A stretch of DNA of 64,000 nt from IMG/VR virus record IMGVR_UViG_3300044641_005643, one strand, 5' to 3'. Shown here one piece after another: positions 11,632 to 58,092 of this stretch. The position numbers were made by a program, and so were the translations under genes. Origin of the DNA: a virus. Numbering within the stretch: the stretch's first letter is position 1; the number at the start of each line of letters is the position of its first letter. The notes under the pieces are model-generated. The model was not told the origin of the DNA and made no database searches. It was given only the letters and a program-made list of their open reading frames with translations.

Positions 11632-11635
11632 GGTT

Positions 11636-35900: not shown

Positions 35901-38900
35901 TTAGAAAACCCCAATGAAGACATAGACAATCCTTCACTGTTTGCCTACAGTCAAAAACTTTTTGGACCAGCACTAGATGACAATGTGAATTTTGGATCAA
36001 GTGTGGTTTTGAACGGAAAATATTTAATAGCCGGATTATCAAATGCAAGAACTATATCAAGTGAAAATGGAGAACTTTTTTATTTTTACAATGAAGATGA
36101 ACAAAGCGGATGGGCATTGTCAAGATTCCGTCAGCCAAGAGTTGATACCAACGCTGTTTTAAGTAGTTTTTTATATAATGTAAATTCACAACAAATTTTA
36201 GATTTTTTTGATTATCTTGACCCAGCCAAAGGAAAACTATTAGGCGTAGTAGATCAAGAATTGGATTATAAAGAAGAATATGACCCCGCTAGTTACAATC
36301 AATCCAATAGAGCTGACACAATCAATAACACAAATTTTTATTGGTCAGACAAACAGGTTGGTAGAATCTGGTGGGATTTGAGCACAATTAGTTTTATTGA
36401 TTATGAACAAGACGAAATAACTTACAGAATTAAAAACTGGGGCTCTTTATTTCCAGGCAGTCTAGTAACAATTTACGAATGGGTAGAAAGCGACTTTTTA
36501 CCAAGTCAGTACGTAGATTCGGTAGGTGATGGTGCTCCTAGATATGCCGACAATTCTGCATATTCATCCGTAACTTTTATTGATCCAGTTACTGGAATTG
36601 TAACTCAAAAGTATTACTACTGGGTGGTAGGAAAATCCAACGTTGATGTTCTTAAAACCAAACGAACTATCAGTGCGCTGGCTCTGCAGAATTATATTAC
36701 CAGTCCCAAAGATCAAAATATACCTTATCTAGCTTTGTTGGCTCCTAATGCAGTTGGTCTATACAACATAGCAGATAAACTGTCAGGCGAGAACGTTGCT
36801 ATTCATTTTGATCTTGCTCAAATAAGAAATACAAATCTGATACACACTGAATGGCAGCTTGTACAGCAAGGAGCTTCGCTTACCAATTTGCCAACAAAAA
36901 TAATTAACAAACTGAAAGACAGTTTGGCCGGGTTCGATGAACTAGGAGCTATTGTTCCAGATCCGGCGTTGAGTGCTCAAGACAAGCCGGGTGTCAGTCT
37001 TCTACCTAGACAATCTATGGTGATTCATAGAAACACAGCTATTACCACCTATGTAGAAACACTCAATTTGATTCTAGTAGAATATCCTATTTTATTATTA
37101 AGCACTCCTACTTCATTAAAGTCAGAAGAACCATTGCCAGTGTCGGGATTTGATGAACAAACAGACAGTGTTGATAATTTAAATTATATTGATACAACCA
37201 CACTGCCAAACGGTTACAAAATATTAGTTCCTTCCGATACCAATCATAACGGAAAATGGACAATTTATTCGTACAATAGTAGCACTGGGGAATTTGATCT
37301 AGTAAGAATACAAAGCTACAAATCAACACTATACTGGACTGCGATTGACTGGTACGATACTGTTTATCAACCTGGTACCACAATAGCCTATACTCTGAAT
37401 ACCTATGCAGAGATACAGACCATAAGTCCAATTGCAGGCGATTATATCAAAATCCTAGATGGCGGTAACGGAACTTGGATATTGTATGAGACACAGGATG
37501 ACCTGAGCTTGACTTTGATTGGTGCACAAAATGGCACACTGCAATTAAACAGAGCATTATACGATCCATCACTTGGCGGAGGATATGATACTACAACCTA
37601 TGATGTATCAGGCTATGATCCTATTCCTACTGAAGAATTTAGATTGATTTATGACGGAATGGTTCAGCAGATTCTAGTGGGCGAACTCAGTGTTGAATTC
37701 AACAATTTGTTCTTTGCGATGTTGAACTACATTTTTACCGAACAAAAGAGTCCGGACTGGGTAATAAAAACAAGTTTGATTGACGTCGTGCATGGTCTCA
37801 GATCTTTAGAGCAATTTCCAAACTTCACAAGAGACAACCAGGTCTTTTATCAGGACTATATCAACGAGGTAAAACCGTATAGGACTCAAATAAAAGAATA
37901 TATTCCTAATTATTTTAAACAAGATAATTTAGATAGCAATATAACTGATTTTGATTTGCCAAGTGCATATGATGCTCGCTTTGATCAATTTAGAAGCCCC
38001 AGTTTAAGCAATCAATTTGACAATGAATTATTTGAGCAACCAATCTATTCTGACTGGGCGAATAATTACAAATTTCAAATTGTAGATTTTATACTTGGAA
38101 ATATTGGTTTAGATTATACATTCCCTCCAAATGTTGAAATAACAGGAGGTGGTGGATCAGGTGCATCTGCAATCACTACATTGTATTCAAACGGATCCAT
38201 ATCGGGTATCACAATCATCAATCCTGGCGTGGGATATACATCTGCGCCTGACGTTACAATCAACGGCGATGGTATAGGTGGTCAAGCATACCCAATTTTA
38301 AAAAATCAATATTATTCATTACAAAGCAATCTAAGTTATAATTTGGTCAAAAATATTTTCACTACTTTAAAATTTGATCGAACCACTTATAGCAGTAACC
38401 TGGTAACTTGGACACCAAATACTTCTTATTCAAACATTGTAATATCCAGCGACACTTTAGATCCAGGTAATTTGTATATTGTATCTGGAAATTTAGTTGT
38501 ACATGAAAATGAAGTTTATCTTCCACAGAATGCGAATGCAACACCTTGGTTGGTCAATACTTTGTATCCTATAAACAGTTACATTTCATTTAGTAACAAT
38601 GTTTATTCAACATCGGGTAATGTTTATGCAAGTAGTTTTGCTGCTGCTTCTGTGCAGGCAAACGTAGAAATTGTTTCACAATTTGACTTTACAAGATTTT
38701 CTATAATTCAAGATGGAAATGTTTTACTCAACGCACTAGATAGAATAACAGCATACTATGAACCTACCGTAGGAATGCCTGGAAAAAATATTGACGAGTT
38801 ACTGTCGGGTACAAAATACCCAGCATCAAAGGTAACTGGACCTACGTTTAGAGCCAATGCTTTTGAAGTTTCAAGCAATATCATTTCTTTCAATTATGAT

Positions 38901-41606
38901 GGTTTAACAATTAACAGTGGAAACACAGCACAGTTTGACTTTTTAGATTTGGGATTTGATCTAGACAAAACCATTAGAATCGAAGCCAACGTGCCTTTTG
39001 ACTTTCAAAATAATGGATATTTTAGAATCGTGGGAGTTGATAGAGACACCATGATTTTGACAGGTCAGCCTGTTGAAACAACATTTAAAGTCACATTGAG
39101 TCAAAACATCAATGCCAATGTTGGTGATTATCTTACTCAGGCCAATTCTAGTGGAAATGCCTGGGTGTTACAGTCTGTAACCAATTCTAATCAAGTTGAT
39201 ATCATTTATATTACACCTGGATTTTTAACTGTCCCGAGTGGTAATGTATATGCCAATTTACAAATTAGTAAAAATGGCACACCTTTAAACGCAAATGTAA
39301 CGTCAATATCTAATTTTGATAAAACATTTACACCAATTGCATCAGGCGGAAATGTTGAAGTAACTATTGCTTATCTTGATCAAGATTACATTGTTGATTC
39401 AAATATTTACAGCACATATTTAGATACTGAATTAGGCACAAGACCTGAAGATATCAATATAGTAGGCGGAGCCTATTTTGACATTTATTCAAGTCATGCT
39501 CCGGAAGAACTTGTGCCTGGTAGAATGTATGACGCCATGGAAATGCGTGTGTTTAGTAACACCGCTGGTAACACAGCCACTTACGGTTACAGAGTGTTCC
39601 AACCAATGAGCGCCAATATAACCTACAGTAGAATTAGTGCCAATGCTACCACAACACTCGCTAACAATTTGCTTTATTCAGATCAAGAAATTTTAGTAAG
39701 TGATGTGACCAAGTTACCTGAGCCAAATGTACCAGCTGGTATTCCTGGAGTGGTCTATATCAATGGTGAAAAAATTCATTATTACCAAAGATACGATGCA
39801 GTCAAACTGAGCACAGCAGTGGCCTGGACAGCAAACACTGAAATTGCAAAAAATTCTTTGATTGTGATCAACAGTAATACATTCTTAACACTAGGCAACG
39901 TATATGCAAATTCCGAGTCATATATTAATTCGGCAAATATACAATTAGTGAAAAATAATTCTTTGCGTCAATTGCGCAGAGGTGTAGATGGTACGGGCAT
40001 AAGTGCAAATGTTAGTAGTGGAAATTTAGTATCCGACGGTAGTGTGATTCAAACTATACCAGAGGCTCAAATAACCAGCGCACAAACTATCACCGGTAAT
40101 CTACATGTTACATCAAACGCCACTTACAGAGCAGTGCTATCCAGCCCAATCACAGCAAGCATAGGTGATTACATTACACAATTTGCAGGGAATACAGGTA
40201 ATGCAAGAATAGTAGGCGGAAATGTAAAAGGTTACAGATTGTTCTTGTCAGGAAATACCAGTCAGCTTGAAGGGAATGTTATTACTCAATTTGGTACTTC
40301 GAATGCCACAGCTACAATTGTTGAAACTGTCAATAACTCTACCACATTGATTGTGACACCAAACAGTAAATTTATCAGTTCTTTGGTTGATCCTGTGTAT
40401 GTCAATAACAAACTGACAGGTCTTTACATCACCAGAGTTGAAAAAGATATAATAGAAGATGATGTTGTAGCTGTTGATATTGTATCCCCAGGACTATGGG
40501 CAACTGCAAATCTTGATTATACTTTGACTTTGAGTAATGCAATTAGTGCTGCCAAGAACGATATAATAACACAGTTCTATGATCCAGATACTTACTTAGT
40601 GGAGTTTTCAAGTCCTATTACATCTAATGTGGGCGACTACATAACTCAGTTCCAAGGCAACACATACAGATTACAATTGGATAAGACTATAAGCGCAAAC
40701 ATCGGGGACTACATTACTCAATTTGTAGGTAATGTATCAAATCTTCAAGTTATTGATGCAAATGTAGTTTCAAATTTTGTTAATGTACAATTTGTCACGG
40801 GCAATGTAGAAAATCTAAAATTTGCTACCAATATTGGCACCAGAGTCAATATTGCTAACTTGTACAGTTTTGGTGGATCGGTGTTTAGCAATACTTCGGC
40901 CAACATTGTCAGTATCTATCAAAAAGCATTCTCACCGAGCGTTGTAAATGTTGGCAATGCCAACTTGCGTGTTACAAGAAGCAGTTTTAACAGTAATGTT
41001 ATACCAGTTCAATTTATTACCGGCGATGTTAATGTAATTAAGACAGCTGCCAATGTAGGCACTAGGGCCAATATTGCCAATTTGCAAGCAAATACATTTA
41101 ATTTTACAACAGCAAACATAGTTAGTATAACAATTGCACCTAATGTTAAAACTGTGTTTAGAGTGCGTTCAAATGTAAGCTCTTCATTTACAGTTCCAGT
41201 AGAATTCATATCTGGTAACACTGCCACGTTGAAACTGGCCACTAACGTTGCTACCAGAATTATTGATTCAACTAACTTTATAACCAATGCAAATGTTGTG
41301 TCTATAAGTTTAGACGGATTCGGAAGCAATACCTTTGGTAATGCTGACACAAGAATCAGCGTAGCAAGTAAAACTATTGGTGTAGTTAGCACAACTGCTA
41401 ACATTTTAACTTTACAACCAATTGGAGATATTACATTTACCAATAATTTACAGTATCCGAGAAGTTTGTTGTCGAATGGAAATGTAGTTCTAAACGGTGT
41501 AACAACTTTAAAGAGTAACATTTGGGAACAGTTTGGTGTCACATTACAAAATAGCACCACTGCGGCAGCACAATTTATTAGAGAGCAGACTAGTTATATA
41601 CCATGA
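26916..41606 (+). CDS. Giant baseplate/virion structural protein (4896 aa; gp7-like position)
   Basis: Follows gp6. N-terminal FLPEVF and DKFVNF.QYYW. Contains FG-GAP-like blades, GGGSGA..I.NPG.GY repeats, EVKPYRT and C-terminal Asn-rich repeats. Confidence 0.75.
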   Translation: MAVFKTLQFLPEVFRTETNKKFLNATTDQLLSEPNLVKVSGYIGRKLAPSFKVTDSYITEPTQDRQNYQVEPTIVIKNPVSNKLEFATTYADITNKISYYGGFDNNHNRLFDNEYYSYDPQIDLDKFVNFVQYYWLENGPDEIIISAADVPTEATFNVTYDATKRSYSVSGFDAITNPLITLARGGSYTFNINEPGNKFFIQSKPGVSGFDPNLNNLETRTVLGVSNNGQDAGAVTFDVPSATAQIEWTLMPIVDQVNYATSLSYQDLQGCLISDLENLGGFDGPSTSFDNLSIVFVNNEYIDEQYWHNTARVLDDVIYLDQDVVIPLEQRTSIYQTSVYPDAQGNMRLYLATKFSVPNENKVRIVSGLENTGREFYKRSNIFNQVPSLTAALDFLYYQSDQSDNAVGVIRLIDYNAFTIDPATEIVGQKNYVSPNGVTFTNGLKVTFDSTAVAPYTNNTYYVEGVGTSIKLVEASTLFSTELDNDLSNPDYITINRSSIDNNAWSRSNRWFHVNILEKTAEYNNTQLLIDQNLRAQRPIIEFNSNLQLFNYGTQAKAAIDVLDDVVTNAYQQIQGVIINYSPPTAPTQATFSITVNSEFLRPGRTYKITSLGNTNWAAAGAPSGFGLNTEFIAIQGVPGTGQAQDTETVTFADGDRIVFTADEDLNVRNKIYNFSIELFSTNPANVYKAYFEEAEDSTIEDGHTVPVNYGSNGAKQWHFNGVSWVDSQQKTSINQPPKFDIIDNNGVSLGDNNVYPQSNFQGTKLFSYKVGTGTNDTVLGFPISYRNLATQGDIIFENNFDIDAFTYRSSAGLELTGTINSGLLQKNITRTTSSRINIWQINLNFSQQYQIFNFIYDGTTNLFPIDILPDVTLDSPNIKVTINNVRVENGNFAITQINERLAILINPSLLQVNDAVFVSIFNSQETSRDAFYEVPLNLDNNSLNINTTELTLGQMRNHLIAFKNNSLDIVGTVPGKSNLRDIFYTNRGGAILQHSAPVVYPGLFLNHPTMSFVDSLRLASREYSKFKQKFLEYAANLELDRQNTAAAVDTILQRINSVKNSNFPWQFSDMVPYGESNKVTLPSYTVFDPEIRTYEITNIFQDTVISNKAVLVYLTRTLDNITTTELLIKGRDYTFDQTRAAINIVESFTLLIDDIISIVEYSSTDGSYIPETPTKLGMYPKYIPEIYTDNTYRTPVPVIQGHDGSLTVAFGDFRDNLLLELEKRIYNNIKVEYDVNLFNINDYIPGKFRVVDYNLQEINQLLSQDFLRWAGTNRVNYTTNNTFSASDPFTWNLKKFRDIVNGENFPGTWRSIYRYFFDTDRPHTHPWEMLGFSEKPDYWNDRYGPAPYTGGNFVLWSDLEAGYIHAGPRAGLDLRYSRPSLTSIIPVDDNGNLRSPTEFLATDYDSLSANLSFAVGDIGPTELAWRRSSEFPFALHFALAITKPARYFGLLLDIENYKRNLATSQFLVESDGHITPSIIKINGYINADNTIDRAAGYINWIVDYAKNLGINDASTYVKDNLELLNIQLSYKMAGFSDKSIINLLAEQFSPSSINASVVIPDENYSIELYKGAPLDKLSYSAVVIEKTENGYTVSGYDIGNPYFVIVPSLANNNSYNIQVGDSTAVVYQDFKNQRLAIPYGFEFSKKQQVVDFLIGYQRYLTLQGFVFDERDNLLKEKKDWALSSKEFLHWTNQGWKTGNVLVLSPVSDYITIFNPTAIIDEVTGSAYGSRILDINSKAIRKNSFTVTRDNGLFTIKCIANETIGFATFDFVQYEHLLLLDNTTVFNDVIYVPETGSRQSRLKLVGNKTGLWNGSLELPGYIYSNETVPEWLAGSDYLKGSLVTYKSSLYTALQNIIAADTFQIAFWQKIDNNELRSGLINNFATNASQSLRYYDINDQPINEEIQLFSNGLIGFRPREYFTNLGIDVTTQSKFYQGLIKQGGTLNAIDALQGSQFNNLGTQPLTVYENWAIRVGEYGALETNNFLEFVLPEQFFRNNPSVFQLADVESNTDVDIKTFTQQSVYRQSSAFQVDFLKTVDYNEPVEFKPLPVAGFVHLDDINNTVFDIKNYESYREIADEIGIGYTIWTARDLNDEWNVYRATPVPGLIFILRYHLNSQAEFVSNAPHGLQENDIVALKNFDPRYNGMYLVQSIVDDTRFLATIYSNLQELIESQAVLGQGLLYKLTSSKFATPLDIVNYAPNSGLIRNDKVWVETVDDKDNWGVYTKTDPWIYRETIQLDQYSGFDHFGSAIALDFTSTYLYASAPDSGSGRIGVYSRDSQDEFTLRASLFSNHIYSQINQFGKVIATGTKNNVNSYLIASDPTATNDTGVVYVFKDRLLQCILTAESGVSGDMFGHSLALSDDAQYLYVGAPGANKVYCYAIDYERQSAVQELIQPDNGSITTLSLTALIDNATDIVVSASIIASQFLPYIDYNLDNTIDASIETFTFSGTAASGTANYINVSAVGGSGTGATFDVARSGGVYTVTLNNPGKGYVLNDTISILGEELGGSSLTNGLTINITKVLVGITGYTQTGDRPAAGTEVFYYNRTATGGTGTGAKFRVSYSSASDFYTLVLENAGVDYLIGDVLTIDGATVGGSTGVHDITITVTAVGAVTNLVFATPPASFLIMSVVKPAEKYIFLETLPKSSEVAINSEFGSAVVCNSDGSVIAVGASNTTVNDVSGAGAVFVYHRTKTELTTTGSSNTFTLPDPFGNFYRVYLDGVLQYDFTNKPEDVDADYTITSINPSQITFGDPGSSFLEPRRKLFVETNQFVYDQVLYSNLTGSLSDNFGSGLAMCNTGCNIYVVSSKYIEADYSQGLVTRFLNVGRIYGTILSTKTNPTVTPGQSIIINDRLVQFSGSQLANVIADINQALIPGVTASNESGKLRITSDVTVVGNRLNILNGNQGTPLADLGLEDYKFVQVFKHPETEQQFYGTSIAVDQTTGVLVIGSEGGDYDLPISFDQGLPLITTFDGNTTNFIDVLKDSGAVYVYDLLENPNEDIDNPSLFAYSQKLFGPALDDNVNFGSSVVLNGKYLIAGLSNARTISSENGELFYFYNEDEQSGWALSRFRQPRVDTNAVLSSFLYNVNSQQILDFFDYLDPAKGKLLGVVDQELDYKEEYDPASYNQSNRADTINNTNFYWSDKQVGRIWWDLSTISFIDYEQDEITYRIKNWGSLFPGSLVTIYEWVESDFLPSQYVDSVGDGAPRYADNSAYSSVTFIDPVTGIVTQKYYYWVVGKSNVDVLKTKRTISALALQNYITSPKDQNIPYLALLAPNAVGLYNIADKLSGENVAIHFDLAQIRNTNLIHTEWQLVQQGASLTNLPTKIINKLKDSLAGFDELGAIVPDPALSAQDKPGVSLLPRQSMVIHRNTAITTYVETLNLILVEYPILLLSTPTSLKSEEPLPVSGFDEQTDSVDNLNYIDTTTLPNGYKILVPSDTNHNGKWTIYSYNSSTGEFDLVRIQSYKSTLYWTAIDWYDTVYQPGTTIAYTLNTYAEIQTISPIAGDYIKILDGGNGTWILYETQDDLSLTLIGAQNGTLQLNRALYDPSLGGGYDTTTYDVSGYDPIPTEEFRLIYDGMVQQILVGELSVEFNNLFFAMLNYIFTEQKSPDWVIKTSLIDVVHGLRSLEQFPNFTRDNQVFYQDYINEVKPYRTQIKEYIPNYFKQDNLDSNITDFDLPSAYDARFDQFRSPSLSNQFDNELFEQPIYSDWANNYKFQIVDFILGNIGLDYTFPPNVEITGGGGSGASAITTLYSNGSISGITIINPGVGYTSAPDVTINGDGIGGQAYPILKNQYYSLQSNLSYNLVKNIFTTLKFDRTTYSSNLVTWTPNTSYSNIVISSDTLDPGNLYIVSGNLVVHENEVYLPQNANATPWLVNTLYPINSYISFSNNVYSTSGNVYASSFAAASVQANVEIVSQFDFTRFSIIQDGNVLLNALDRITAYYEPTVGMPGKNIDELLSGTKYPASKVTGPTFRANAFEVSSNIISFNYDGLTINSGNTAQFDFLDLGFDLDKTIRIEANVPFDFQNNGYFRIVGVDRDTMILTGQPVETTFKVTLSQNINANVGDYLTQANSSGNAWVLQSVTNSNQVDIIYITPGFLTVPSGNVYANLQISKNGTPLNANVTSISNFDKTFTPIASGGNVEVTIAYLDQDYIVDSNIYSTYLDTELGTRPEDINIVGGAYFDIYSSHAPEELVPGRMYDAMEMRVFSNTAGNTATYGYRVFQPMSANITYSRISANATTTLANNLLYSDQEILVSDVTKLPEPNVPAGIPGVVYINGEKIHYYQRYDAVKLSTAVAWTANTEIAKNSLIVINSNTFLTLGNVYANSESYINSANIQLVKNNSLRQLRRGVDGTGISANVSSGNLVSDGSVIQTIPEAQITSAQTITGNLHVTSNATYRAVLSSPITASIGDYITQFAGNTGNARIVGGNVKGYRLFLSGNTSQLEGNVITQFGTSNATATIVETVNNSTTLIVTPNSKFISSLVDPVYVNNKLTGLYITRVEKDIIEDDVVAVDIVSPGLWATANLDYTLTLSNAISAAKNDIITQFYDPDTYLVEFSSPITSNVGDYITQFQGNTYRLQLDKTISANIGDYITQFVGNVSNLQVIDANVVSNFVNVQFVTGNVENLKFATNIGTRVNIANLYSFGGSVFSNTSANIVSIYQKAFSPSVVNVGNANLRVTRSSFNSNVIPVQFITGDVNVIKTAANVGTRANIANLQANTFNFTTANIVSITIAPNVKTVFRVRSNVSSSFTVPVEFISGNTATLKLATNVATRIIDSTNFITNANVVSISLDGFGSNTFGNADTRISVASKTIGVVSTTANILTLQPIGDITFTNNLQYPRSLLSNGNVVLNGVTTLKSNIWEQFGVTLQNSTTAAAQFIREQTSYIP

Positions 41607-41626
41607 ATACCTCACTAAATAGTAAT

Positions 41627-42301
41627 ATGGAATCAAAAATGGAAAATTTACAACAAGATAAAGACAATAATACGAAGCCAGATGAAATAGGTGGCTTAAA
41701 TGTACAGGGTCACATCAAGATTTTTGACCCCGAATCAGGTGAAATTTTTATCGAAAAACGTAACGCCATTCATTATGAAAATATAAGTGAAGCGATTGGT
41801 TACACATTGGCCAACAAAGGACAAAGCTATATTTTTGAAATGCATTTTGGCAATGGTGGAACAAGTGTAGATCCTACTGGAATTATTAACTATTTGCCAC
41901 CAAACACAAACACAGGTAACAGTAATCTTTACAATCCAACTTTTGCCAAAATTGTAGATAATACCAGTGCTTTAAATGCTGACCCTACTAGAAACAAAAT
42001 GGAAGTCAGACATGTTCCTGGCCGTGTGTATAGCGATATTGTGGTCAGTTGTTTATTGGATTATGGCGAACCTCCGGGGCAAAGTGCATTTGATAATAGC
42101 ACAACCTTGGAAGATACCTACACGTTTGATGAACTTGGTCTAAAAGCCAGAAGTAATGATGGTACGTCGGGATTGACAACTACAGGAAAATTACTAACGC
42201 ATGTTATTTTCCATCCAGTACAAAAAAGTTTAAATCGATTGATACAGATTGATTACACAATTAGAATACAAACTTTAACCAATTTAAGTAGCATAGGATA
42301 A
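41627..42301 (+). CDS. Conserved virion structural protein (baseplate/fibre attachment)
   Basis: GHIKIFDP, KRNAIHYEN, FGNGG, LDYGEP, FDELGL, LLTHVIFHPVQKS. Start could be 41603, 41627 or 41639. TAAATA at 41616-41621 favours 41627 or later. Confidence 0.65.
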   Translation: MESKMENLQQDKDNNTKPDEIGGLNVQGHIKIFDPESGEIFIEKRNAIHYENISEAIGYTLANKGQSYIFEMHFGNGGTSVDPTGIINYLPPNTNTGNSNLYNPTFAKIVDNTSALNADPTRNKMEVRHVPGRVYSDIVVSCLLDYGEPPGQSAFDNSTTLEDTYTFDELGLKARSNDGTSGLTTTGKLLTHVIFHPVQKSLNRLIQIDYTIRIQTLTNLSSIG

Positions 42302-42305
42302 TATA

Positions 42306-43421
42306 ATGCCATATTTTGTGTCAAAAACAGATGGTACTGTTATAACTGTACAAGACGGTACTAAAGATACCACCAGCACCAGCTTAACCTTAATTGGCAG
42401 ATTGGCACAAAATTATGGTGATCAAACCAATGAGAATTTTGTAAGATTATTAGAAAATTTTAGTGCAAATACCGAACCGGCCTTTCCGATTACTGGTCAG
42501 TTGTATTTTGATAAAGGTAATACCAGTTTAAAAATTTATTCAATCAACAACACATGGATACCAGTTGGTAGCGTGATACAAGGTAATGTTGATATTTCTG
42601 GAAATTTAGAAATTGGTTCTAGCGGTTTCCGTATAAACGACACCAACGGCAATGTTCAAATTACCAACTCTTCTAACATTGGTAATGTAAGTGTTTTTGC
42701 TAATGTATCTGGGGTTAGCACAAGAGTGCTGCACATTAACGGTAGTAACGGTCAAGTTGAAGTGGCAGCTAATGCCACAAACAATTTTGGTTTAACAACC
42801 AAAATTTATGTTGATAGTCAATTGGCTTCTGTGTTAGCAAATACCACAAGCAGTTTTAATGCAAATATTAATGCAATCAATTCAAATCTGGCAGCTAGGA
42901 TTTCAGAAGAAGATCAACTGCGAGCCAATATTACTGCTGCCAATGCTCAGATAGCTCTTAGAGATACCATATCTCGAGTAGATACAATAAACAATACAAT
43001 TAATTCGTCTATTATTTCTAATGTAAATGTTATTAACTCCAACTTGGCATCAAGACTAAATCAAACAGTTGCAGTTGAAACAGCAATGTTGGCAAATGTT
43101 GGCGCTGCTAATCTTAGAGTAAATGCAGCCAACATCGATATCGCCGCCTTGAATACCAAGATAGATAACAACACAGTAGATCTTAACATAGCAATTTTAA
43201 ACAATGTTGCGACCAAGTCTGATTTAGTAAGTCCTGTTTTCACTGGAACTCCCGTCGCACCTACCGCATCCTTTGGTGCAAATACAACACAGATAGCCAC
43301 CACTGAATATGTAATGACCAGAAGCACCTTCTGGGACGGTAGCAGAAAGTTTGTTAGCACATCTGATCCTACTGTGAGCGATGGTAACAATGGCGATATT
43401 TGGTTCAAGTATATTCCGTAA
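42306..43421 (+). CDS. Tail fibre-related protein
   Basis: N-terminal DGT.D.TSTSLTL.G...ENF...P..GQL shared with 44486. Coiled-coil middle. SPVFTGTPVAPTA...TTQIATTEYV fibre motif. Confidence 0.7.
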   Translation: MPYFVSKTDGTVITVQDGTKDTTSTSLTLIGRLAQNYGDQTNENFVRLLENFSANTEPAFPITGQLYFDKGNTSLKIYSINNTWIPVGSVIQGNVDISGNLEIGSSGFRINDTNGNVQITNSSNIGNVSVFANVSGVSTRVLHINGSNGQVEVAANATNNFGLTTKIYVDSQLASVLANTTSSFNANINAINSNLAARISEEDQLRANITAANAQIALRDTISRVDTINNTINSSIISNVNVINSNLASRLNQTVAVETAMLANVGAANLRVNAANIDIAALNTKIDNNTVDLNIAILNNVATKSDLVSPVFTGTPVAPTASFGANTTQIATTEYVMTRSTFWDGSRKFVSTSDPTVSDGNNGDIWFKYIP

Positions 43422-43424
43422 AGT

Positions 43425-44429
43425 ATGCCAACAAAATTAATTTCTCGCGAATTTACAATTACATCAACTGGTAGGTTCGTGATCGAAATGCCATTCAAAG
43501 CAAATATCACTGCACACCTCTGGGGTGGCGGAGGCGGAGGTGGCGGATTTGATTCTGACAGTCCCTGGGGTGGAGTAGGATCGCCAGGTTTATATAATAC
43601 CACAACTTTTTCTGTTAATCGAGGCGACATACTTGAAGTGGTTGTCGGACAGGGAGGAAATGGAGGCGGGTCTATCAATGGCAGTTCGCCTGGTGGCAGA
43701 GCTGGAAATAGTAGAATACAAATAAATGGTAACAACAATTTAAGTTTTAATGGCGGCCAAGGAGGAAATTCAGGGCCAATTGGTAGCGGTGGTGCAGGCG
43801 GCGGTGGCGGCGGTGCATCAGCTATCTTGATCAATAGTGCTCTGGCTATTGTTGCAGCCGGGGGAGGTGGCGGCGGCGGTGCAGGCGATGGCGGTCAAAG
43901 TCAAGGACAAATAAGCAACGCATCTATACAGAACAACGCTACTGGGGAAGCAGCCACTGACTACAGAGGTGAAAACGGTCAAAATAAAACCGGAAATGGC
44001 GGCGGTGGCGGTGCTGGAGGTGGCGGTTACCCAGGTGGTCAGGGAGGTGCAATAGTTGGTTTAGATAGAACTGCTTATGCAGGACAATGCGGTGGTAACT
44101 TTCCAATATTTTCAGCCAATACTGGAGTGAATACACCCTACTATAAAGCCGGGTTCGCTGCCGGCGGCAGCAGCGGAGGCGGCAATGGGCAAAATGGTAG
44201 AGTGTTTGTACAGATTGAACCAACGGGCTTGTTTGGTATCAAAACTGGTGGCGAGTGGAGTCAAGTAAGCGAAGCATTTGTCAAAATAAGCGGCGCCTGG
44301 AAAGATATAGAAAAAATTTTTATAAAAGTTGATGATAATTGGAGAGAAGTGCAAGGGGCAGGACAAAGAAATTTAGATTTTGTAGCTAACACACAACTTT
44401 ACAGTACATCAATTCGAAGCTTTACCTAA
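43425..44429 (+). CDS. Glycine-rich tail fibre/adhesin-like protein
   Basis: LWGGGGGGG and poly-Gly runs. C-terminal (I/V)KxxGxWx repeats. Confidence 0.7.
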   Translation: MPTKLISREFTITSTGRFVIEMPFKANITAHLWGGGGGGGGFDSDSPWGGVGSPGLYNTTTFSVNRGDILEVVVGQGGNGGGSINGSSPGGRAGNSRIQINGNNNLSFNGGQGGNSGPIGSGGAGGGGGGASAILINSALAIVAAGGGGGGGAGDGGQSQGQISNASIQNNATGEAATDYRGENGQNKTGNGGGGGAGGGGYPGGQGGAIVGLDRTAYAGQCGGNFPIFSANTGVNTPYYKAGFAAGGSSGGGNGQNGRVFVQIEPTGLFGIKTGGEWSQVSEAFVKISGAWKDIEKIFIKVDDNWREVQGAGQRNLDFVANTQLYSTSIRSFT

Positions 44430-44454
44430 GCTTTTGGCGGCAAATTTTAATTCA

Positions 44455-44460
44455 TAAATA
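44455..44460 (+). promoter_or_regulatory. Putative late promoter core
   Basis: CATAAATA, then GGAG SD and ATG 44486. Confidence 0.55.
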
Positions 44461-44485
44461 ATAAACAGTTGGAGATTTTTTAAAA

Positions 44486-46141
44486 ATGGCATATAATATA
44501 ACCTTAACAAACGGATCTGCTTTGATTACCGGCGGATTAGTTGACGGCACTATTGACATCACATCAACAAGCTTGACTTTGGTAGGTAAAAACTATCCCG
44601 GATACGGTATATTTTTAAACCAAAATATGGTAAGATTGATGGAAAATTTTGCCAATGGATCGCAACCAACTGCACCTTTGCCAGGCCAACTTTGGTGGAA
44701 TTCTTCAACAAAATACTTGAATATTAATACAGCCACAACCAAAGGCACAGCAAATGCAATATGGAAAACTATTGCAACAATGACTTATGCTGGCAGTTTT
44801 ACTACTACACCGGTAGCAGGAGAGCAATGGTTTGATACAATCAACCAACAATTAAAAGTATGGAATGGAACTGCATGGGTTGTTATTGGCCCAGTATCTG
44901 CTACTGCATTGGGTAACACTGGTGCTATTCCTGACACGTTACAATCTGTATTGCCCGGCGGCGGAGCAGGACCAACCTATGTTGTACTAAAGTTTTTTAT
45001 TGATGGTACACTGGTTGGTATTTGGAGCAAAGATGTTCAGTTTAATACTAATGTATCTGGTTTTGCTACTGTGTCGCGTGGTTTAAATTTAAATACAGAT
45101 CTTAACCAACAGTTTTATGGAAATACAGCACTAGCCCTAGCTTTAAGTGTAAGTGGTGCCAGTGTGCCAGCAACATCTTTTTTAAGAAACGATCAGTCAG
45201 GTACAATTAACGGTTTCTTGGTAGTAGATGATGACAATGGAATTACAGTAGGCGAGGCAGGAGAATTTGTTGCATCCGTTGATACTGGTGTTGTAAAATT
45301 AAGGAATACATCAAACAATAAAGATCTTGTTTTAGGAGTTAAAAAAAGTGGAGTTGATCAAAACGTATTAAGATTAAATTACGATACCGGATTGCCAGAA
45401 GCGTATAGCAATCCTGTTTCATCATCCCCTGATTTAAGCCTTGCCACAAAGTTTTATGTTGATAGATTGTTGGGCGGTGGTACGTTTATCAGTACCTTTA
45501 ATGCAAGCTTGAATCCAGCTGCAAACGTTACCTTTACTTTAGGAAACACTACTAACAGATGGAGTAATGTTTTTACTCAAAGCATGCTGGTAGGTAATGT
45601 GTTTGCTGCCAATACATTTACTCATCAATCAAATATTACCGGAACAGTATTTGTGTCGTCTGACATCATGCCTGTGTCTAATACTACTTCTAATCTGGGC
45701 AGTATTGGTATGTGGTTTAATACAATTCACGGAAAATCAGTGCAAGCCCAATACGCTGACTTGGCAGAAAGATTTGCGGCAGATATGCCTTATGACCCAG
45801 GAACAGTTGTAGCCATTGGCGGTATTAAAGAAATCACAGCTGAAAAGAAAGAACTAAGTGAAGATGTATTTGGAGTTATTAGCACTAGAGCAGCCTATTT
45901 GATGAACGGCGCAGCGGGTCCAAACTCAACACATCCGCCAGTGGCTGTAAATGGTAGAGTTCCAGTTAAGGTGATAGGTTCAGTGAGAAAAGGAGACAGA
46001 CTTGTAAGTGCAGGCGATGGTTTGGCTAGAGCAGGTGCTAAACATGAACTTTCTCCTTGGAACGTTATTGGACGCAGTTTAGAAGATAAATTAGATACCG
46101 GCGAAGGCATAGTTGAAGCCATCGTAAAATTAAACAGTTAA
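44486..46141 (+). CDS. Tail fibre protein with C-terminal intramolecular chaperone/peptidase G2-like domain
   Basis: N-terminus paralogous to 42306. C-terminal AQYADLAE...GVIST..AYLMN...GRVPVKV.G...KGD.LV. Confidence 0.7.
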   Translation: MAYNITLTNGSALITGGLVDGTIDITSTSLTLVGKNYPGYGIFLNQNMVRLMENFANGSQPTAPLPGQLWWNSSTKYLNINTATTKGTANAIWKTIATMTYAGSFTTTPVAGEQWFDTINQQLKVWNGTAWVVIGPVSATALGNTGAIPDTLQSVLPGGGAGPTYVVLKFFIDGTLVGIWSKDVQFNTNVSGFATVSRGLNLNTDLNQQFYGNTALALALSVSGASVPATSFLRNDQSGTINGFLVVDDDNGITVGEAGEFVASVDTGVVKLRNTSNNKDLVLGVKKSGVDQNVLRLNYDTGLPEAYSNPVSSSPDLSLATKFYVDRLLGGGTFISTFNASLNPAANVTFTLGNTTNRWSNVFTQSMLVGNVFAANTFTHQSNITGTVFVSSDIMPVSNTTSNLGSIGMWFNTIHGKSVQAQYADLAERFAADMPYDPGTVVAIGGIKEITAEKKELSEDVFGVISTRAAYLMNGAAGPNSTHPPVAVNGRVPVKVIGSVRKGDRLVSAGDGLARAGAKHELSPWNVIGRSLEDKLDTGEGIVEAIVKLNS

Positions 46142-46150
46142 GGATTAGCA

Positions 46151-47116
46151 ATGACATACGTGCAAGGTGGTTTAATTGAAGCCCAAGATTATAACAATCT
46201 ATTGGGAGGTAATGCAACATCTAATTCTAATACCTTAGATGCAGTATGGGCATGGGGGAATGGTAGTCGAGGATACGGTCAGGCCAACCTTGCCAATGTT
46301 GCAGTGACAGGCACAGTTACAGCTACAAACTGGGCTTCGCTAATAAACATTTTGAATAGTGCTAACTTACATATTAGGAATACCACATCTGGTTTAACTG
46401 CAAATACTGCAGGACAATTGATTGGACATTCAGGTTTTTTAACTACAGCTATCCAACGACTCAATCAAGATAGGTTACTGTTTGCAACCAATTCCGCGGT
46501 AATTGCCAATCATAATAGTCTAACATCATATCCCGCATGGCAAGTGGCAGATCCACTTGCTACACAAACTGTAACACGTAGTTTTGGTGCTAATGTGGCA
46601 TTTCAGAGTCCTGACAGAGCCAGATTCTTTTTCAACGCCGGCGGTCGTTTGAAGTTCAATGTATCTGCCACCAATAATCTTGGTGCAGGAGTTGCCGGAC
46701 AAAGATCCCAATCTATTGTCAATTTGTTTACCAATTTGGGTGGAGTGGCATTGATTGCAGCTAACACCAATGCTGGCAGAACTGGAGCTGGCGGAACCTT
46801 GGTGACTAATAATACTGCTTTAGGATATTACCAAGCCACAATTGCAAACACAGCTATAGTTTCAGTTACAGGAACTACAGCGGAATACACTACTGACTCG
46901 GCCACTATAACTTATCGTACCAATGGCAGACAAGGGCAACACAACGACAACGGATCTATATTGAGTTTTTGGGTGAACGTAACCAATACCACTGGAACCG
47001 GTACCGGATACAATGACGCAATTGATGTTACGGCAACAGTAACAGTAGATGTTTCCTACCCAGAAGTAACCAATCTCGCCAATACCTGGGGTGCCGTCAC
47101 TGTTACCAGACAGTAA
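46151..47116 (+). CDS. Virion structural protein (fibre/baseplate associated)
   Basis: MTY..GGLIEA.DYN, GYGQ, ARFFFNAGG. Thr/Asn/Ala-rich. Confidence 0.6.
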   Translation: MTYVQGGLIEAQDYNNLLGGNATSNSNTLDAVWAWGNGSRGYGQANLANVAVTGTVTATNWASLINILNSANLHIRNTTSGLTANTAGQLIGHSGFLTTAIQRLNQDRLLFATNSAVIANHNSLTSYPAWQVADPLATQTVTRSFGANVAFQSPDRARFFFNAGGRLKFNVSATNNLGAGVAGQRSQSIVNLFTNLGGVALIAANTNAGRTGAGGTLVTNNTALGYYQATIANTAIVSVTGTTAEYTTDSATITYRTNGRQGQHNDNGSILSFWVNVTNTTGTGTGYNDAIDVTATVTVDVSYPEVTNLANTWGAVTVTRQ

Positions 47117-47182: not shown

Positions 47183-47497
47183 ATGACAGACGTAGATTCA
47201 TTAGTCCAAGAAGTCAAGTTGGCCACTGATTTCCAGATTAACAAAAAAATTCTAAAAGAAAAAATTCAGACTGATTTACATCTGACACACAACGGTGGCA
47301 TGTTCAAAATTACACCAGAGTTGTTGGCTTTTGTTCAAACTTGGCCGGTTGATGAATTATATTTAGAAGATGTTTATGAAAGTCCAATCAAGATTGATCG
47401 GCAAGCTTTTTTAATCACAGCACAACAACATTATCAAACAGTAATGAACAGATGGCATCAAGCATATGCAGAACTCAAACAAATTAGAAAAATCTAG
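47183..47497 (+). CDS. Hypothetical protein (104 aa)
   Basis: First ORF of the cluster, overlapping the next gene. No recognised motif. Confidence 0.7.
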   Translation: MTDVDSLVQEVKLATDFQINKKILKEKIQTDLHLTHNGGMFKITPELLAFVQTWPVDELYLEDVYESPIKIDRQAFLITAQQHYQTVMNRWHQAYAELKQIRKI

Positions 47498-48248
47498 AGG
47501 AATTTTGGCGTTTGCATACAATGTTGATACAATTGATTACGAATCAATTGCATACAAAACTCTTGAAGTTGCAAGTCAAAAATTACAATTGCCCTACACT
47601 CTGATTACAGACAAAGAATTATCAAACCATACAGAAAATATTAGATACAGTATTGATGAACACGCATTTATAAAATGGAGAAATGTTGGCAGATATCATG
47701 CTTTTGAACTTTCACCTTATGATGAGACATTGGTAATTGATGTTGATTATTTAATTTTAGAAAATAATTTAAACAAGATATTTGACTGCGATTGGGATTA
47801 TCTATTACAGAGACACAGTTTTGCTCTCACACAACAATGGCCAAAACTAATGGGTACTTCGAGCTTGCCGTATATATGGGCAACAGTTTTTGCATTTAGA
47901 AAAACTAAAAAATCAAAATTATTTTTTGATCTAGTTGGTAAAATTCAAAGGAATTATTCCTATTATTATTCTTTGTTTAATGTCAATGAAAGAAACTATA
48001 GAAATGACTATGCGTTTTCAATAGCGGACATTATACTTAATGGTTATAACCTAGAAAGTCATACCATTCCAGGAAACATGCTGGCTGTGAACCAAGTCAT
48101 TGATACTATAAAATTATTCAATAACAGTTTAATAATTAAAGATTCTAAAAAATCCTATGTTGTTCCTAAAATGAATTTGCATATAATGAGCAAGGCATAT
48201 TTACAAAGTGACAATTTTGAAACATTCATAAACGAGATACTAGAATGA
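47466..48248 (+). CDS. GT-A fold glycosyltransferase (GT8-like)
   Basis: GILAFAYN..IDY, SPYDETLVIDVDY (DxD), RNDYAF, late His. Confidence 0.65.
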   Translation: MQNSNKLEKSRGILAFAYNVDTIDYESIAYKTLEVASQKLQLPYTLITDKELSNHTENIRYSIDEHAFIKWRNVGRYHAFELSPYDETLVIDVDYLILENNLNKIFDCDWDYLLQRHSFALTQQWPKLMGTSSLPYIWATVFAFRKTKKSKLFFDLVGKIQRNYSYYYSLFNVNERNYRNDYAFSIADIILNGYNLESHTIPGNMLAVNQVIDTIKLFNNSLIIKDSKKSYVVPKMNLHIMSKAYLQSDNFETFINEILE

Positions 48249-49066
48249 ATCATAAAGAACAATTGGGTTTTTTGACAGTGGCATGTAATAATGATATTGA
48301 TTATTTGCAATTGGCTTATGTACAGGCGTTGAATATTAAAAAAACTCAGAAACACAATAAATTTGCAGTGGTGGTAGATAATCATACCAAAAAATTTATC
48401 ACAAAAAAGCACGAACAAATATTTGATTATGTTATCCAGGCACCTGATCACGATTTTGGAAAATTTGGAACTGAAGCATTTTTATTTGAATTAACCCCAT
48501 TCAAAGAAACAATCAAAATTGAAAGCGATTTGTTATTCACAAGAAGTATAGATCATTGGGTTAATGCATTTAGATTACGAGACGTAGTTTTAAGTGTTGG
48601 GTGTAAAAATTATCGGCAAGAAACATCAGACGTAAGATATTATAGAAAAACATTTGATGATAACAATTTGCCAGATGTTTATAATGGTTTGATGTATTTT
48701 AGATTTACGCAGACTGCCAAAAGTTTTTTTGATAAAGTGAAATTAATTTTCGACAATTGGGTTCATATTCAAAGTTGTTTAAGAAATTGTAGAGAAGATA
48801 CTGCCAGTACAGATTTAGTTTTTGCCATAGCCGCAAGAATGATTGGTGAAGAATTATGCACTTTGCCTAGTGCAGATTTTATAAATTTTGTGCATATGAA
48901 ACCTGCTATTAATGAATTTGATCACAGTCTTGTTTTTAAAGAAGTTTTTGTTACTGAATTCAACGAAGGGATGATCAAAATAAACAATATCAATCAATAT
49001 CATCCATTACATTACTATGATAAAAATTTTATTACTCAGGAAATGATTGAATACTATGAACGATAA
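48245..49066 (+). CDS. GT-A fold glycosyltransferase, paralog of 47466
   Basis: GFLTVA.N..IDY, TPFKETIKIESD, YNGLMYF, STDLVFA, FVHMKP. Confidence 0.65.
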   Translation: MNHKEQLGFLTVACNNDIDYLQLAYVQALNIKKTQKHNKFAVVVDNHTKKFITKKHEQIFDYVIQAPDHDFGKFGTEAFLFELTPFKETIKIESDLLFTRSIDHWVNAFRLRDVVLSVGCKNYRQETSDVRYYRKTFDDNNLPDVYNGLMYFRFTQTAKSFFDKVKLIFDNWVHIQSCLRNCREDTASTDLVFAIAARMIGEELCTLPSADFINFVHMKPAINEFDHSLVFKEVFVTEFNEGMIKINNINQYHPLHYYDKNFITQEMIEYYER

Positions 49067-49427
49067 CTTTTGGGATGAAGTTTTTAAACTAGTAGAAGAA
49101 TTTGATGCCCAGCGACCTGTAGTTTGTAAGCAAAATAGGTTATACTATAACAATGATGGCAGTGTAATAGGTTACTATGAGACCAATCATCCTGCGGGTG
49201 ATAATTATATTATTCTAGATGATCCAAACCTATTCTTCAAAAACAACACTCATTTACTAAGAGTTAAAAATAAAAAATTAACCTTGTTAGATGTCAAACG
49301 GCCCAATAAAGTTAGATTGAAACGTGCTAGTTCGGGATTTAGCACAGTTAAAGGGCACTCTGCAATACTATTAGAACAAAACGAAACTTATAATGACGTA
49401 GATTATTATGACTACCAAAACGATTGA
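49047..49427 (+). CDS. Hypothetical protein (126 aa)
   Basis: Overlaps both neighbours in the operon. Confidence 0.65.
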   Translation: MNTMNDNFWDEVFKLVEEFDAQRPVVCKQNRLYYNNDGSVIGYYETNHPAGDNYIILDDPNLFFKNNTHLLRVKNKKLTLLDVKRPNKVRLKRASSGFSTVKGHSAILLEQNETYNDVDYYDYQND

Positions 49428-50337
49428 TATAGCAGATTTAGATTGTATTTTTTTAACATATGACGAACCTAAAAAAGAAGAGTTTTGGATACGTATTCAA
49501 AACATGGTACCGTGGGCAAAGAGAGTGGATGGCGTTAAAGGATCTGACGCTGCACACAAAGCAGCCGCTGCCGCAAGTGACACAGAAAGATTTGTTCTGA
49601 TTGATGGAGACAACATACCTGATCCTGGATTTTTTAACTTACAACTCCGGCTGGACGAAAGGAATCATGACCATGTTTTTAGATGGAAGGCACGTAACAT
49701 AATAAATGGTTTGCGTTATGGCAATGGCGGTGTAAGTTGCTGGACTCGAGAGTTTGTTTATAACATGCGCACTCACGAAGCAAGCGACGGCACAGAAGAA
49801 ACGGCTGTGGAGTTTTGTTTTAATCCAAAATACACAGCCATGCACAATTGTTATAGTACAACCTATCCTAATGGTAGTGCCAAACAAGCATGGCGTGCTG
49901 GCTTTCGTGAAGGTGTAAAGATGTGTCTTGATCGAGGTCACAAACCTTCCTTACAGGAATTTGAAGAGGGTGTGAATAAAAGAAACTACGATCACTTGTG
50001 TATATGGCAAAGCGTAGGCGCTGATGTGGAAAACGGTTATTGGGCCATGTACGGAGCCAGACTAGGCACATACATGATCATGCTAGAAGGTTGGGATCAT
50101 CATCAAGTACAAGATTTTGACATGTTAGAAAAGTTATGGTCAAGCTTCGGTAAAGAAGATCCTGCGGAAGGATGCGAACAAATTGCAAATTCATTAACTA
50201 CTAGATTAGGATTACCTATTGTCACTTATACCCCAGAACAGAGTCAATTTTTTAAACATCATTATTCAACTGGTCAAAGAAATAGTGAAATCATGATGAC
50301 TGAAATTGATGTTATTCGCAGGATCGAAGGATGGTAA
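49408..50337 (+). CDS. GT-A (GT2-like) glycosyltransferase
   Basis: IFLTYDEP, RVDGVKG...AH.AAA, FVLIDGDN (DxD), AWRAGFRE. Confidence 0.6.
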   Translation: MTTKTIDIADLDCIFLTYDEPKKEEFWIRIQNMVPWAKRVDGVKGSDAAHKAAAAASDTERFVLIDGDNIPDPGFFNLQLRLDERNHDHVFRWKARNIINGLRYGNGGVSCWTREFVYNMRTHEASDGTEETAVEFCFNPKYTAMHNCYSTTYPNGSAKQAWRAGFREGVKMCLDRGHKPSLQEFEEGVNKRNYDHLCIWQSVGADVENGYWAMYGARLGTYMIMLEGWDHHQVQDFDMLEKLWSSFGKEDPAEGCEQIANSLTTRLGLPIVTYTPEQSQFFKHHYSTGQRNSEIMMTEIDVIRRIEGW

Positions 50338-51707
50338 GCGATTTTCTATCTGCAGCAGAAAAAATGAAAGACCAATTGGGTCATAGTCTATGCTTGGCCA
50401 AGTGGCAACAGGTCAGTCTGCACCTTCCTACAGGATTGACCAACAGTTGTTATCATCCACCGTTACACGAAATAGATGCTACATTATTAAAGGACAATCC
50501 CAGTGCCTTACACAACACACCATATAAAAAAGAACAGCGTAAGATTATGTTACGTAATGAAAGACCGCAAGAATGTAGCTATTGCTGGACGCAAGAAGAT
50601 TTAGGAAATCTAAGTGACAGACATTACAGATCAGGTGAGCCCTGGGCCGCAGAGCATTTTGAAACAATCACAAATTTGTCGGGCAATGAAGACGCAATTC
50701 CAAGCTATGTGGAGGTCAATTTCAATCATGCTTGCAATCTCAAGTGTTCCTATTGTAGCCCTCAGTTTAGTAGTAGCTGGGATAATGAAATTAGACGTTA
50801 TGGAGGATATCCCACTAGTACTACTCATAATGATCCATCTCATTTTACCGGTCGTAGACGACCTATCCCCACTAGAGAAAACAATCCATATGTTGATGCA
50901 TTCTGGGAGTGGTGGCCAAGTTTATATCCAAAACTGAAACATTTTAGAATGACCGGCGGCGAGCCATTAATGGATCGTAATACCTATCGAGTGTTTGACT
51001 ATGTGTTGGCGTTTCCTAAATCAGATTTGCACATCGATGTCACCAGCAATTTCAGTGTAGAAGAAAAGTTGTGGGATCAATATTTAAATTATGTCAAGCA
51101 ACTATGTAATACAAATATTGAACATTTCATGCAATATGTTAGTTTAGATTCCTGGGGCGAACATGCAGAATACATTAGACATGGTATGGATTTTTGGAAG
51201 GTGGTTAAACGAGTAGATCATTATTTAGAAGAGATTCCTTCTCGTAACAGTTTAACTTTTATAATCACCATGAGTAATTTGAATATATTAGGACTGCGTC
51301 GTTTATTAGAACTGGTTTTAGATTTACGAGACATACACAGCAAAACGTATCAACGAGTTTGGTTTGATACTCCAATCTTGAGACAACCCACTTGGCAAAG
51401 TTTACAAATATTACCGCCGGTGTACACCAAACGATTACAAGATGTAGTTGATTGGATGCAAGCCAATTTGGAAAAACCACAACGCCCATTTCAAGGATTC
51501 AAAGATTACGAAGTGCAAAGAATGCAACGAGTACTAGATTGGATGCAACAAGGTAGCAAATTAGATCAAGAATATGTTACAATACAAAGAGCAGATTTTT
51601 TTAGATTTTTTAACGAACACGACAAACGCAGAGAAACCAACTTTTTAAATACATTCCCAGAAATGCGAGAATTCTGGGACCAGTGTAAATATTACGCCAT
51701 TAACTAA
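50331..51707 (+). CDS. Radical SAM protein, N-terminal Twitch-like domain
   Basis: CLAKW...SCYHP...CSYC, then CNLKCSYC, TGGEP. Confidence 0.9.
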   Translation: MVSDFLSAAEKMKDQLGHSLCLAKWQQVSLHLPTGLTNSCYHPPLHEIDATLLKDNPSALHNTPYKKEQRKIMLRNERPQECSYCWTQEDLGNLSDRHYRSGEPWAAEHFETITNLSGNEDAIPSYVEVNFNHACNLKCSYCSPQFSSSWDNEIRRYGGYPTSTTHNDPSHFTGRRRPIPTRENNPYVDAFWEWWPSLYPKLKHFRMTGGEPLMDRNTYRVFDYVLAFPKSDLHIDVTSNFSVEEKLWDQYLNYVKQLCNTNIEHFMQYVSLDSWGEHAEYIRHGMDFWKVVKRVDHYLEEIPSRNSLTFIITMSNLNILGLRRLLELVLDLRDIHSKTYQRVWFDTPILRQPTWQSLQILPPVYTKRLQDVVDWMQANLEKPQRPFQGFKDYEVQRMQRVLDWMQQGSKLDQEYVTIQRADFFRFFNEHDKRRETNFLNTFPEMREFWDQCKYYAIN

Positions 51708-51710
51708 ATT

Positions 51711-52832: not shown

Positions 52833-52838
52833 TTTGTT

Positions 52839-58091: not shown

Positions 58092-58092
58092 T

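Follow-up and report, generated by a model that had tools for sequence, protein, structure and literature searches.

An ordered Asn tripeptide in three tail proteins of an uncultured jumbo myovirus, probably a structural motif of repeated modules

The chlorovirus capsid protein Vp54 carries Asn sequons of the types NTXT (NTGT, NTET and NTAT) and NIPG (PMC9614988; PMC5408694; PMC7318305). We compared this and other precedents with a 64,000-nucleotide stretch of IMG/VR virus record IMGVR_UViG_3300044641_005643, hereafter called the window, which is part of the genome of an uncultured jumbo myovirus. An initial annotation of the window had pointed to distal virion proteins studded with Asn residues that follow Ala, Gly or Ser, and had proposed that these are non-canonical acceptor sites for an adjacent cluster of glycosyltransferases (GTs) and radical S-adenosylmethionine (SAM) enzymes. 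The locus resembles the PBCV-1 Vp54 system in that the Asn residues lie outside N-X-S/T and in that a virus-encoded GT-A-like enzyme (here predicted) is found near structural genes. It differs in that the NTXT and NIPG sequons are not enriched in the phage proteins, and in that there are dozens of motif sites per fibre rather than the four sites of each Vp54 capsid protein. Host and virus type are also different.

Mycobacteriophage virions are reportedly glycosylated by phage-encoded GTs (Freeman et al. 2023), with sugars that are O-linked and located on capsid and tail-tube proteins. As in those viruses, candidate GT genes stand beside the virion structural genes of a tailed phage, whereas the proposed acceptor here would be Asn in fibre modules. 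The idea of virion glycosylation by phage GTs is echoed in PMC11256854. A different kind of likeness is offered by structural repeat motifs of trimeric phage tail proteins, such as the His-x-His iron sites of T4 gp37, the VxGxxxxx rungs of T4 gp5 and the hexapeptide rungs of left-handed beta-helices. The likeness lies in a short, ordered and conserved motif that is placed at a structural period and yields an excess of dipeptides with z scores of about 5 or more. Unlike these repeat motifs, a single tripeptide is common to at least three module types in three non-homologous proteins of the window, and the related jumbo phages that were tested do not have the bias.

An ordered tripeptide excess in three tail proteins

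The largest carrier is a giant protein of 4896 amino acids (aa), encoded by an open reading frame (ORF) at 26916-41606; other ORFs are named here by their start positions. Motif counts were compared with those in whole-protein shuffles and, as a stricter control, with those obtained by shuffling within blocks of 20 aa. By whole-protein shuffling, [AGS]N (Ala, Gly or Ser followed by Asn) occurs 75 times in aa 3751-4896 of the giant protein, hereafter its C-terminus, where 29.9 occurrences are expected (z = 10.0). The preceding 3750 residues are slightly depleted (51 versus 62.0, z = -1.7), in line with the early impression that the motif is denser distally than in the N-terminal part. The peptides quoted at that stage can all be traced to the giant ORF (SGNVYANLQ at aa 4108, SANVSSGNLV at aa 4363, RANIANLQANTF at aa 4717 and AGNTGNAR at aa 4424). 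The initial list of motif-rich proteins survives only in part. Besides the giant C-terminus, ORF 20039 (36 versus 15.8, z = 6.3) and ORF 42306 (22 versus 12.8, z = 3.2) are enriched, whereas ORF 44486 (14 versus 12.5, z = 0.5) and ORF 46151 (13 versus 11.2, z = 0.7) have no excess.

The bias had been placed at position -1 relative to Asn. The excess of the ordered pair [AGS]N agrees with this, and the bias also reaches Val, Ile or Leu at position +1. With shuffling within 20-aa blocks, [AGS]N[VIL] is found 44 times against 8.3 expected in the giant C-terminus (z = 13.7); the corresponding z scores for ORFs 20039 and 42306 are 8.8 and 5.4. The tripeptide Ala/Gly/Ser-Asn-Val/Ile/Leu is 3-5 times too frequent in these three tail proteins. 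Under the same control, the reversed patterns N[AGS] and [VIL]N[AGS] remain at chance level. Composition or local low complexity can be ruled out as the cause, because the excess survives local shuffling and is confined to one order of residues. Among all 400 dipeptides in the giant C-terminus, AN, GN and NV rank as the top three (z = 7.1, 5.7 and 5.1).

The suspected lack of N-X-S/T enrichment also holds. The pattern N[^P][ST] is found 21 times in the giant C-terminus where 25.1 are expected (z = -1.0), and reaches at most z of about 2 in the other proteins. The chlorovirus-like pattern NT.T is not enriched in the giant C-terminus (2 versus 1.4), ORF 20039 (1 versus 0.6) or ORF 42306 (0 versus 0.6). 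The window's 32 non-fibre proteins show no depletion of the motif (112 versus 119.6). Overall, the original observation is real but narrower than claimed, and we regard it as partly confirmed.

At the DNA level, there are 75 in-frame matches compared to 3 and 8 in the other two frames, and 13 different codons are used at position -1. Because the excess is restricted to one frame and the -1 codons are diverse, the bias is placed at the protein level. These same features, together with an Asn that is conserved rather than variable, rule out a DNA-level motif or AAY targets of the diversity-generating retroelement type.

No motif bias was found in T4 gp34-37, PA5oct gp354-360, Atu_ph07 gp176-180 or SCTP-2 gp137-140. 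A tripeptide z score above 4 is seen in none of the 76 ORFs of five control loci, compared to 3 of the 38 ORFs in the window. These controls, which also include Vibrio phage K566, rule out a generic property of fibres. An excess of the dipeptide HS (z = 5.1) was encountered in T4 gp37, and presumably reflects its His-x-His iron sites. Structural fibre motifs can therefore yield ordered dipeptide excesses of this kind.

Conservation, repeats and modelled position

Searches with the giant C-terminus as the query recovered 16 related IMG/VR loci with 45-99% identity, and conservation was calculated from the nine more divergent orthologues. In these, identity is 86% at motif Asn residues, 65% at other Asn residues and 60% at residues other than Asn, which makes conservation of the motif Asn comparable to that of Gly, Tyr and Trp. 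The residue at position -1 interchanges freely in the orthologue alignment (Ala 143, Gly 96, Ser 66), and replacements of the motif Asn are mainly Ser, Ala or Thr.

A survey of the clade covered 80 IMG/VR loci found with the conserved domain, out of approximately 600 that were matched. The giant C-terminus ranges from z = 0.5 to z = 9.7 across these loci. Among these approximately 80 relatives, orthologues of ORF 20039 and ORF 42306 have median z scores of 5.7 and 2.6, respectively. There is no enrichment in the ORF 44486 family (88 matching ORFs, median z = 0.2) or in orthologues of ORF 46151 (median z = -0.6), and orthologues of ORFs 41603 and 43425 have z scores near 0. The carriers in the fibre region are thus selective, with certain module types bearing the motif and these four proteins lacking it.

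In 28 homologues of the giant protein drawn from a library of 1.8 billion proteins, the C-terminal 1100 aa span z = -1.6 to z = 10.8, and related modules occur in 429 representative proteins at E <= 0.001. Practically no homologues of the enriched proteins were found in cultured phages. One relative with 289 kb of sequence (G002) has 13 of 256 ORFs above z = 4, arranged in four clusters. Eight of the ten enriched ORFs scanned against PHROGs match tail, fibre or structural families, and several share modules as judged by BLAST. In that genome, a protein of 807 aa (L104:7648-10068, equivalent to G002 27648-30068) exhibits the strongest tripeptide excess seen (41 versus 8.0, z = 12.5) and consists largely of repeats of the type ANLGTATTNIS that resemble a long coiled coil. 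Three distant relatives (L080:11350, L096:11299 and L097:11293, all + strand) encode the motif-rich C-terminal extension in an ORF of its own (434-901 aa, z = 6-8). These ORFs directly follow a shorter giant gene, a fusion/fission polymorphism.

Profile comparison (hhalign) of 50-aa segments revealed three internal repeat families in the giant C-terminus, with probabilities of 88-99%, and together they contain 50 of its 75 motif sites. The hairpin family (88-98.7%) has 14 sites in 175 aa. The A unit (I.AN.GDYITQF.GN) and the B unit (ATN.GTR.NIAN), detected at 90-99%, have 36 sites in 402 aa. Distances between sites peak at 4, 7 and 11 in the giant C-terminus, at 6 and 12 in ORF 20039, where GNILTT occurs three times among similar hexads, and at 7-8 in ORF 42306. 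A pentapeptide repeat of the form A(D/N)LXX is ruled out, because a spacing of 5 is seen once in the giant C-terminus against 3.8 expected.

The nested A/B units (approximately 420 aa, aa 4440-4800, nt ~40230-41315) are shared by four of 12 orthologues, those of the window, L002, L003 and L006, and by no others. Orthologues without these units are shorter by approximately 420 aa and are still enriched (z = 5.6-8). The giant C-terminus lengthens by the insertion of modules. Another length difference is a 42-aa hairpin block (aa ~3875-3916), found only in the window, L002, L003 and L007.

An AlphaFold2 model of the giant C-terminus was built from 82 aligned sequences and has a mean predicted local distance difference test (pLDDT) score of 62. 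Prediction is good for model residues 75-400 and 455-680 and poor for the nested repeats. Of the 36 motif Asn residues in blocks with pLDDT >= 60, 19 (53%) are located 0-3 residues before the start of a beta-strand, compared to 25% of other residues (Fisher p = 6e-4). Only two of the 36 (6%) are within strands, compared to 28% of other residues (p = 0.0016). The initial annotation had itself named turn residues as an outcome that would speak against acceptor sites, and in the confident parts of the model the motif Asn residues do occupy such positions, at loop-to-strand junctions.

Some modules of the model have recognizable folds. With VIA-align, residues 491-626 match small beta-barrels like those of phage decoration or insertion domains (Z = 8-10.3). 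Residues 125-170 and 544-595 are similar to chitin-binding domains (1ed7, 4tx8, 4ny2 and 8yug), with Z = 5.0-6.1 over 43-46 residues at 2.0-2.6 Å. The hairpin family shares with CBM5/12 (chitin-binding type 3) both this fold match and the W...Y...Y spacing. Unlike CBM5/12, it has no Pfam match, it has an additional GNVY strand, and in place of the canonical Asn-Gly hairpin turn it has Ser/Gly-Asn, then Val or Thr and an aromatic residue. Foldseek returned no significant match for the whole 1146-aa model, and sequence searches of the PDB found neither a homologue nor a solved structure with these modules. The GN hexads of ORF 20039 align with the hexapeptide rungs of serine acetyltransferase at E = 0.84, which is not significant.

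A structural motif weighed against other roles

Alongside the demonstrated excess, its order-specificity and its conservation, the loop-to-strand position seen in the model, the periodic spacing and the membership in repeats make a structural reading the best supported. We consider it probable that the tripeptide is a lineage-specific turn or strand-cap motif of repeated modules in the outermost tail proteins of this jumbo-phage clade. The small residue (Ala, Gly or Ser) would close a tight loop, the Asn side chain would cap the next strand, and Val, Ile or Leu would be the first residue to face the core in the strand, rung or heptad. Asx-type capping of this sort is known from general protein structure. 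In the giant C-terminus, the module types involved would be the CBM5/12-like hairpins, the small beta-barrels and the nested A/B units; ORF 20039 would contribute hexapeptide rungs, and ORF 42306 heptad segments. Such modules would arise by duplication and then be shuffled among fibre genes, and in this manner the motif would come to recur.

Several observations weigh against a purely structural role. Substitution by Asp is rarer at motif Asn than at other Asn residues (2% versus 6%). The same tripeptide is present in three structural settings, and therefore one fold cannot explain it. Approximately one-third of the sites are outside the detected repeats and are still enriched about 1.7-fold there, and the bias is not general to fibres. 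Furthermore, the model is a monomer of limited mean confidence, and the densest motif region (aa 4440-4830) falls below pLDDT 55. Finally, the clade that has the motif bias is the same clade that has a conserved sugar and radical SAM cassette right after its fibre genes.

This cassette begins with three GT-A-like candidate genes; the GT cluster that the initial annotation had placed next to these proteins is indeed located directly downstream of the fibre genes. Every relative whose sequence extends far enough downstream has GT-like genes. Two of the three candidates in the window, ORFs 47466 and 48245, are paralogues. The language-model neighbours of ORF 48245 belong to Nucleotid_trans/GT8-like clusters and those of ORF 49408 to GT2-like clusters, and none of the three proteins has a Pfam or NCBIfam match over threshold. 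An AlphaFold2 model of ORF 49408 has a pLDDT of 70, and the 50 best VIA matches to its residues 4-143 are all GT-A or nucleotidyl-transferase folds (Z = 5.4-6.9). Its best Foldseek rows (2p73, 2p6w and 2p72, the PBCV-1 capsid-glycan transferase A64R) are weak (E = 0.012-0.029), and D66-G-D68 is invariant in 13 orthologues. These weak fold and language-model leads suggest that the cassette probably includes transferases. ORF 49408 (309 aa) is also the most conserved gene of the fibre-proximal block, with 66-97% identity compared to 45-70% for the fibres.

The radical SAM genes that follow belong to the N_Twi_rSAM family, and after them come an SGNH/GDSL-type gene, a carbamoyltransferase gene and an APS-kinase-like gene. 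The cassette as a whole spans 47183-63845. The paralogue family is unusually large for a phage, with seven tandem members in the window. Matches over the NCBIfam cut-off number eight in G002 and ten in G003, as a tandem array plus dispersed singles. Two loci considered as relatives lacking the cassette (L075/G002 and L082/G003) are ruled out as such, because in G002 the entire cassette is found further downstream with its gene order unchanged, and both genomes have the radical SAM array. Relatives L067 and L069 keep cassette genes but have short giant C-termini with no enrichment (z = 0.8 and 0.5). Four outgroup phages have neither the bias nor a cassette beside these genes, and no N_Twi_rSAM-like match was found in them. 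Phage K566 has distant N_Twi-like radical SAM clusters as well, surrounded by metabolic genes rather than fibre genes. In Atu_ph07, which exhibits no motif bias, two annotated radical SAM genes are found approximately 5 kb downstream of the giant structural gene (L100, 119224-123069). The bias and the cassette co-occur in the clade. However, no clade member without the cassette was found, so this association is inseparable from shared ancestry and represents a single phylogenetic event rather than independent evidence.

A rival proposal, which widens the glycan coat of the initial annotation to any modification of Asn, is that [AGS]-N-[VIL] is a sequon at which downstream phage enzymes attach a sugar or another group to Asn in selected fibre modules, thereby coating or hardening them. 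The candidate enzymes would be the three GT-A-like transferases, perhaps assisted by the cassette's radical SAM, SGNH, carbamoyl and kinase enzymes. In its favour, the signal is ordered, conserved, Asn-specific and shared by three unrelated structural settings, and the modelled loop or turn positions would be compatible with enzyme access. The bias is also absent in outgroup phages that lack the cassette beside these genes, the cassette is syntenic with the fibre genes clade-wide, and conservation of its enzymes exceeds that of the fibres. The predicted GT-A-like fold, invariant DGD and weak A64R matches of ORF 49408 also count in favour, as does the reported glycosylation of mycobacteriophage virions. 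Nevertheless, we judge a sequon to be unlikely. Neither N-X-S/T nor NTXT is enriched, no GT exceeds a curated family threshold, and the fold scores (Z < 8) are in the range of common arrangements. The enrichment is specific to modules rather than surface-wide, given that ORFs 44486, 46151, 41603 and 43425 have no bias, and two-thirds of the sites are in internal repeats, with Asn modelled at loop-to-strand junctions. Likewise, cytoplasmic phage proteins show no depletion of the motif. L067 and L069 have cassette genes but an unenriched giant C-terminus, the co-occurrence counts as one event, the K566 clusters sit among metabolic genes, and the cassette might just as well act in the sugar chemistry of DNA or of the cell surface. 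The more specific reading, in which the motif Asn residues are acceptors for an N-linked sugar or another change made by the GT-A-like and radical SAM cassette, is improbable as well, and sugar attachment to the motif Asn is not favoured.

Another possibility is that the loop Asn residues of lectin-like modules, namely the CBM5/12-like hairpins and the small beta-barrels, form hydrogen bonds with host polysaccharide receptors. The hairpin modules do match chitin-binding domains, the homologue in a relative from the PA5oct group is annotated as a chitin-binding type-3 domain protein, and the carriers are distal tail proteins. This role is nonetheless doubtful, because receptor contacts usually vary fastest whereas the motif Asn residues are the best-conserved positions. 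Furthermore, the fold scores are weak, and ORFs 20039 and 42306 bear the motif in hexapeptide rungs and heptads, which are more like a shaft than a binding surface. The excess could also be a mere echo of recent duplication, in which one unit is counted repeatedly and the tripeptide itself is unselected, as might be suspected from the concentration of two-thirds of the sites in three repeat families and from the recent insertion of the nested A/B units in four of 12 orthologues. This explanation has very little left to recommend it. The motif is retained while the remainder of the repeat diverges, sites outside the repeats are enriched, and the echo is largely refuted because the short-form orthologues without nested units and the unrelated, non-homologous proteins of ORFs 20039 and 42306 share the bias.

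If the tripeptide is structural, it provides a sequence marker for an uncharacterised family of fibre modules that is widespread in freshwater jumbo phages. It also serves as a caution that an ordered tripeptide excess in fibres need not mean a sequon. Were the Asn residues modified instead, this would be a phage-made, Asn-linked decoration of host-recognition proteins and, for bacteriophages, the first virion modification directed at Asn, its sequon being set at positions -1 and +1. A first substrate would thereby be available for the N_Twi radical SAM family, so far unstudied, and for the transferases beside it. Fragments rich in the motif are small, at 80-140 aa.

Gene order and neighbouring features

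The nearest record to the window is an IMG/VR fragment of 32 kb that is 99% identical. The giant gene directly follows a gene for a gp6-like baseplate wedge protein (23446-26907), which has 34-38% identity to its counterparts in PA5oct, Phosso, SCTP-2, XaC1 and the PBECO4 group. The first ~2000 aa of the giant ORF match the giant protein of these phages. The PA5oct counterpart is gp355, whose record describes a virion protein detected by electrospray ionization tandem mass spectrometry (ESI-MS/MS). The features discussed above are listed in Table 1.

Table 1. Positions of the motif-bearing proteins, their repeats and neighbouring genes in the window
Feature	Position	Strand	Description
Giant baseplate/virion protein C-terminus, aa 3751-4896 (~1146 aa)	38166..41606	+	mosaic of small beta modules (predicted); 75 [AGS]N sites
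Hairpin repeat family, aa 3851-3925	38466..38690	+	SGNVY/LGNVYAN type, CBM5/12-like; more copies at aa 4101-4130 and 4276-4345
Nested A/B repeat units, aa ~4395-4800	40098..41315	+	hhalign; plus one intact unit at aa ~4050-4135
ORF 20039, 529 aa	20039..21628	+	after gp5-like hub gene; PHROG baseplate hub match; GN hexapeptide repeats at aa ~387-470
ORF 41603, 232 aa	directly after giant gene		conserved (sequence conservation)
ORF 42306, tail fibre, 371 aa	42306..43421	+	PHROG tail fibre families; AN[IVL]-rich heptad segment at aa ~150-300
ORF 43425, glycine-rich protein	between the 42306 and 44486 genes		
ORF 44486, fibre, 551 aa	44486..46141	+	weak Pfam Peptidase_G2 (IMC autoproteolytic cleavage domain) match at C-terminus; motif not enriched
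ORF 46151, 321 aa	46151..47116	+	family without assignment; motif not enriched
Three GT-A-like candidate sugar transferases (47466, 48245, 49408)	47466..50337	+	head of the cassette downstream of the fibre genes
Seven tandem N_Twi_rSAM radical SAM genes	50331..59388	+	Pfam Radical_SAM plus N-terminal SPASM domain; NCBIfam NF033640 at 325-392 bits

In the stretch from the fibre genes to the cassette, scans for promoters and terminators gave results at chance level, and T4-type late promoters were not found there. Two more radical SAM genes, of another type that has no SPASM match, are located on the opposite strand at 5373-7282 (-), beside genes for an SMC/RecF-like ATPase and a PDDEXK nuclease. 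Also on that strand, at 11131-12220 (-), a match to DegT/DnrJ/EryC1 aminotransferases is limited to profile positions 164-236 of 360 and is found in an ORF of 194 aa. This ORF abuts another of 171 aa, and the gene may be split or truncated.

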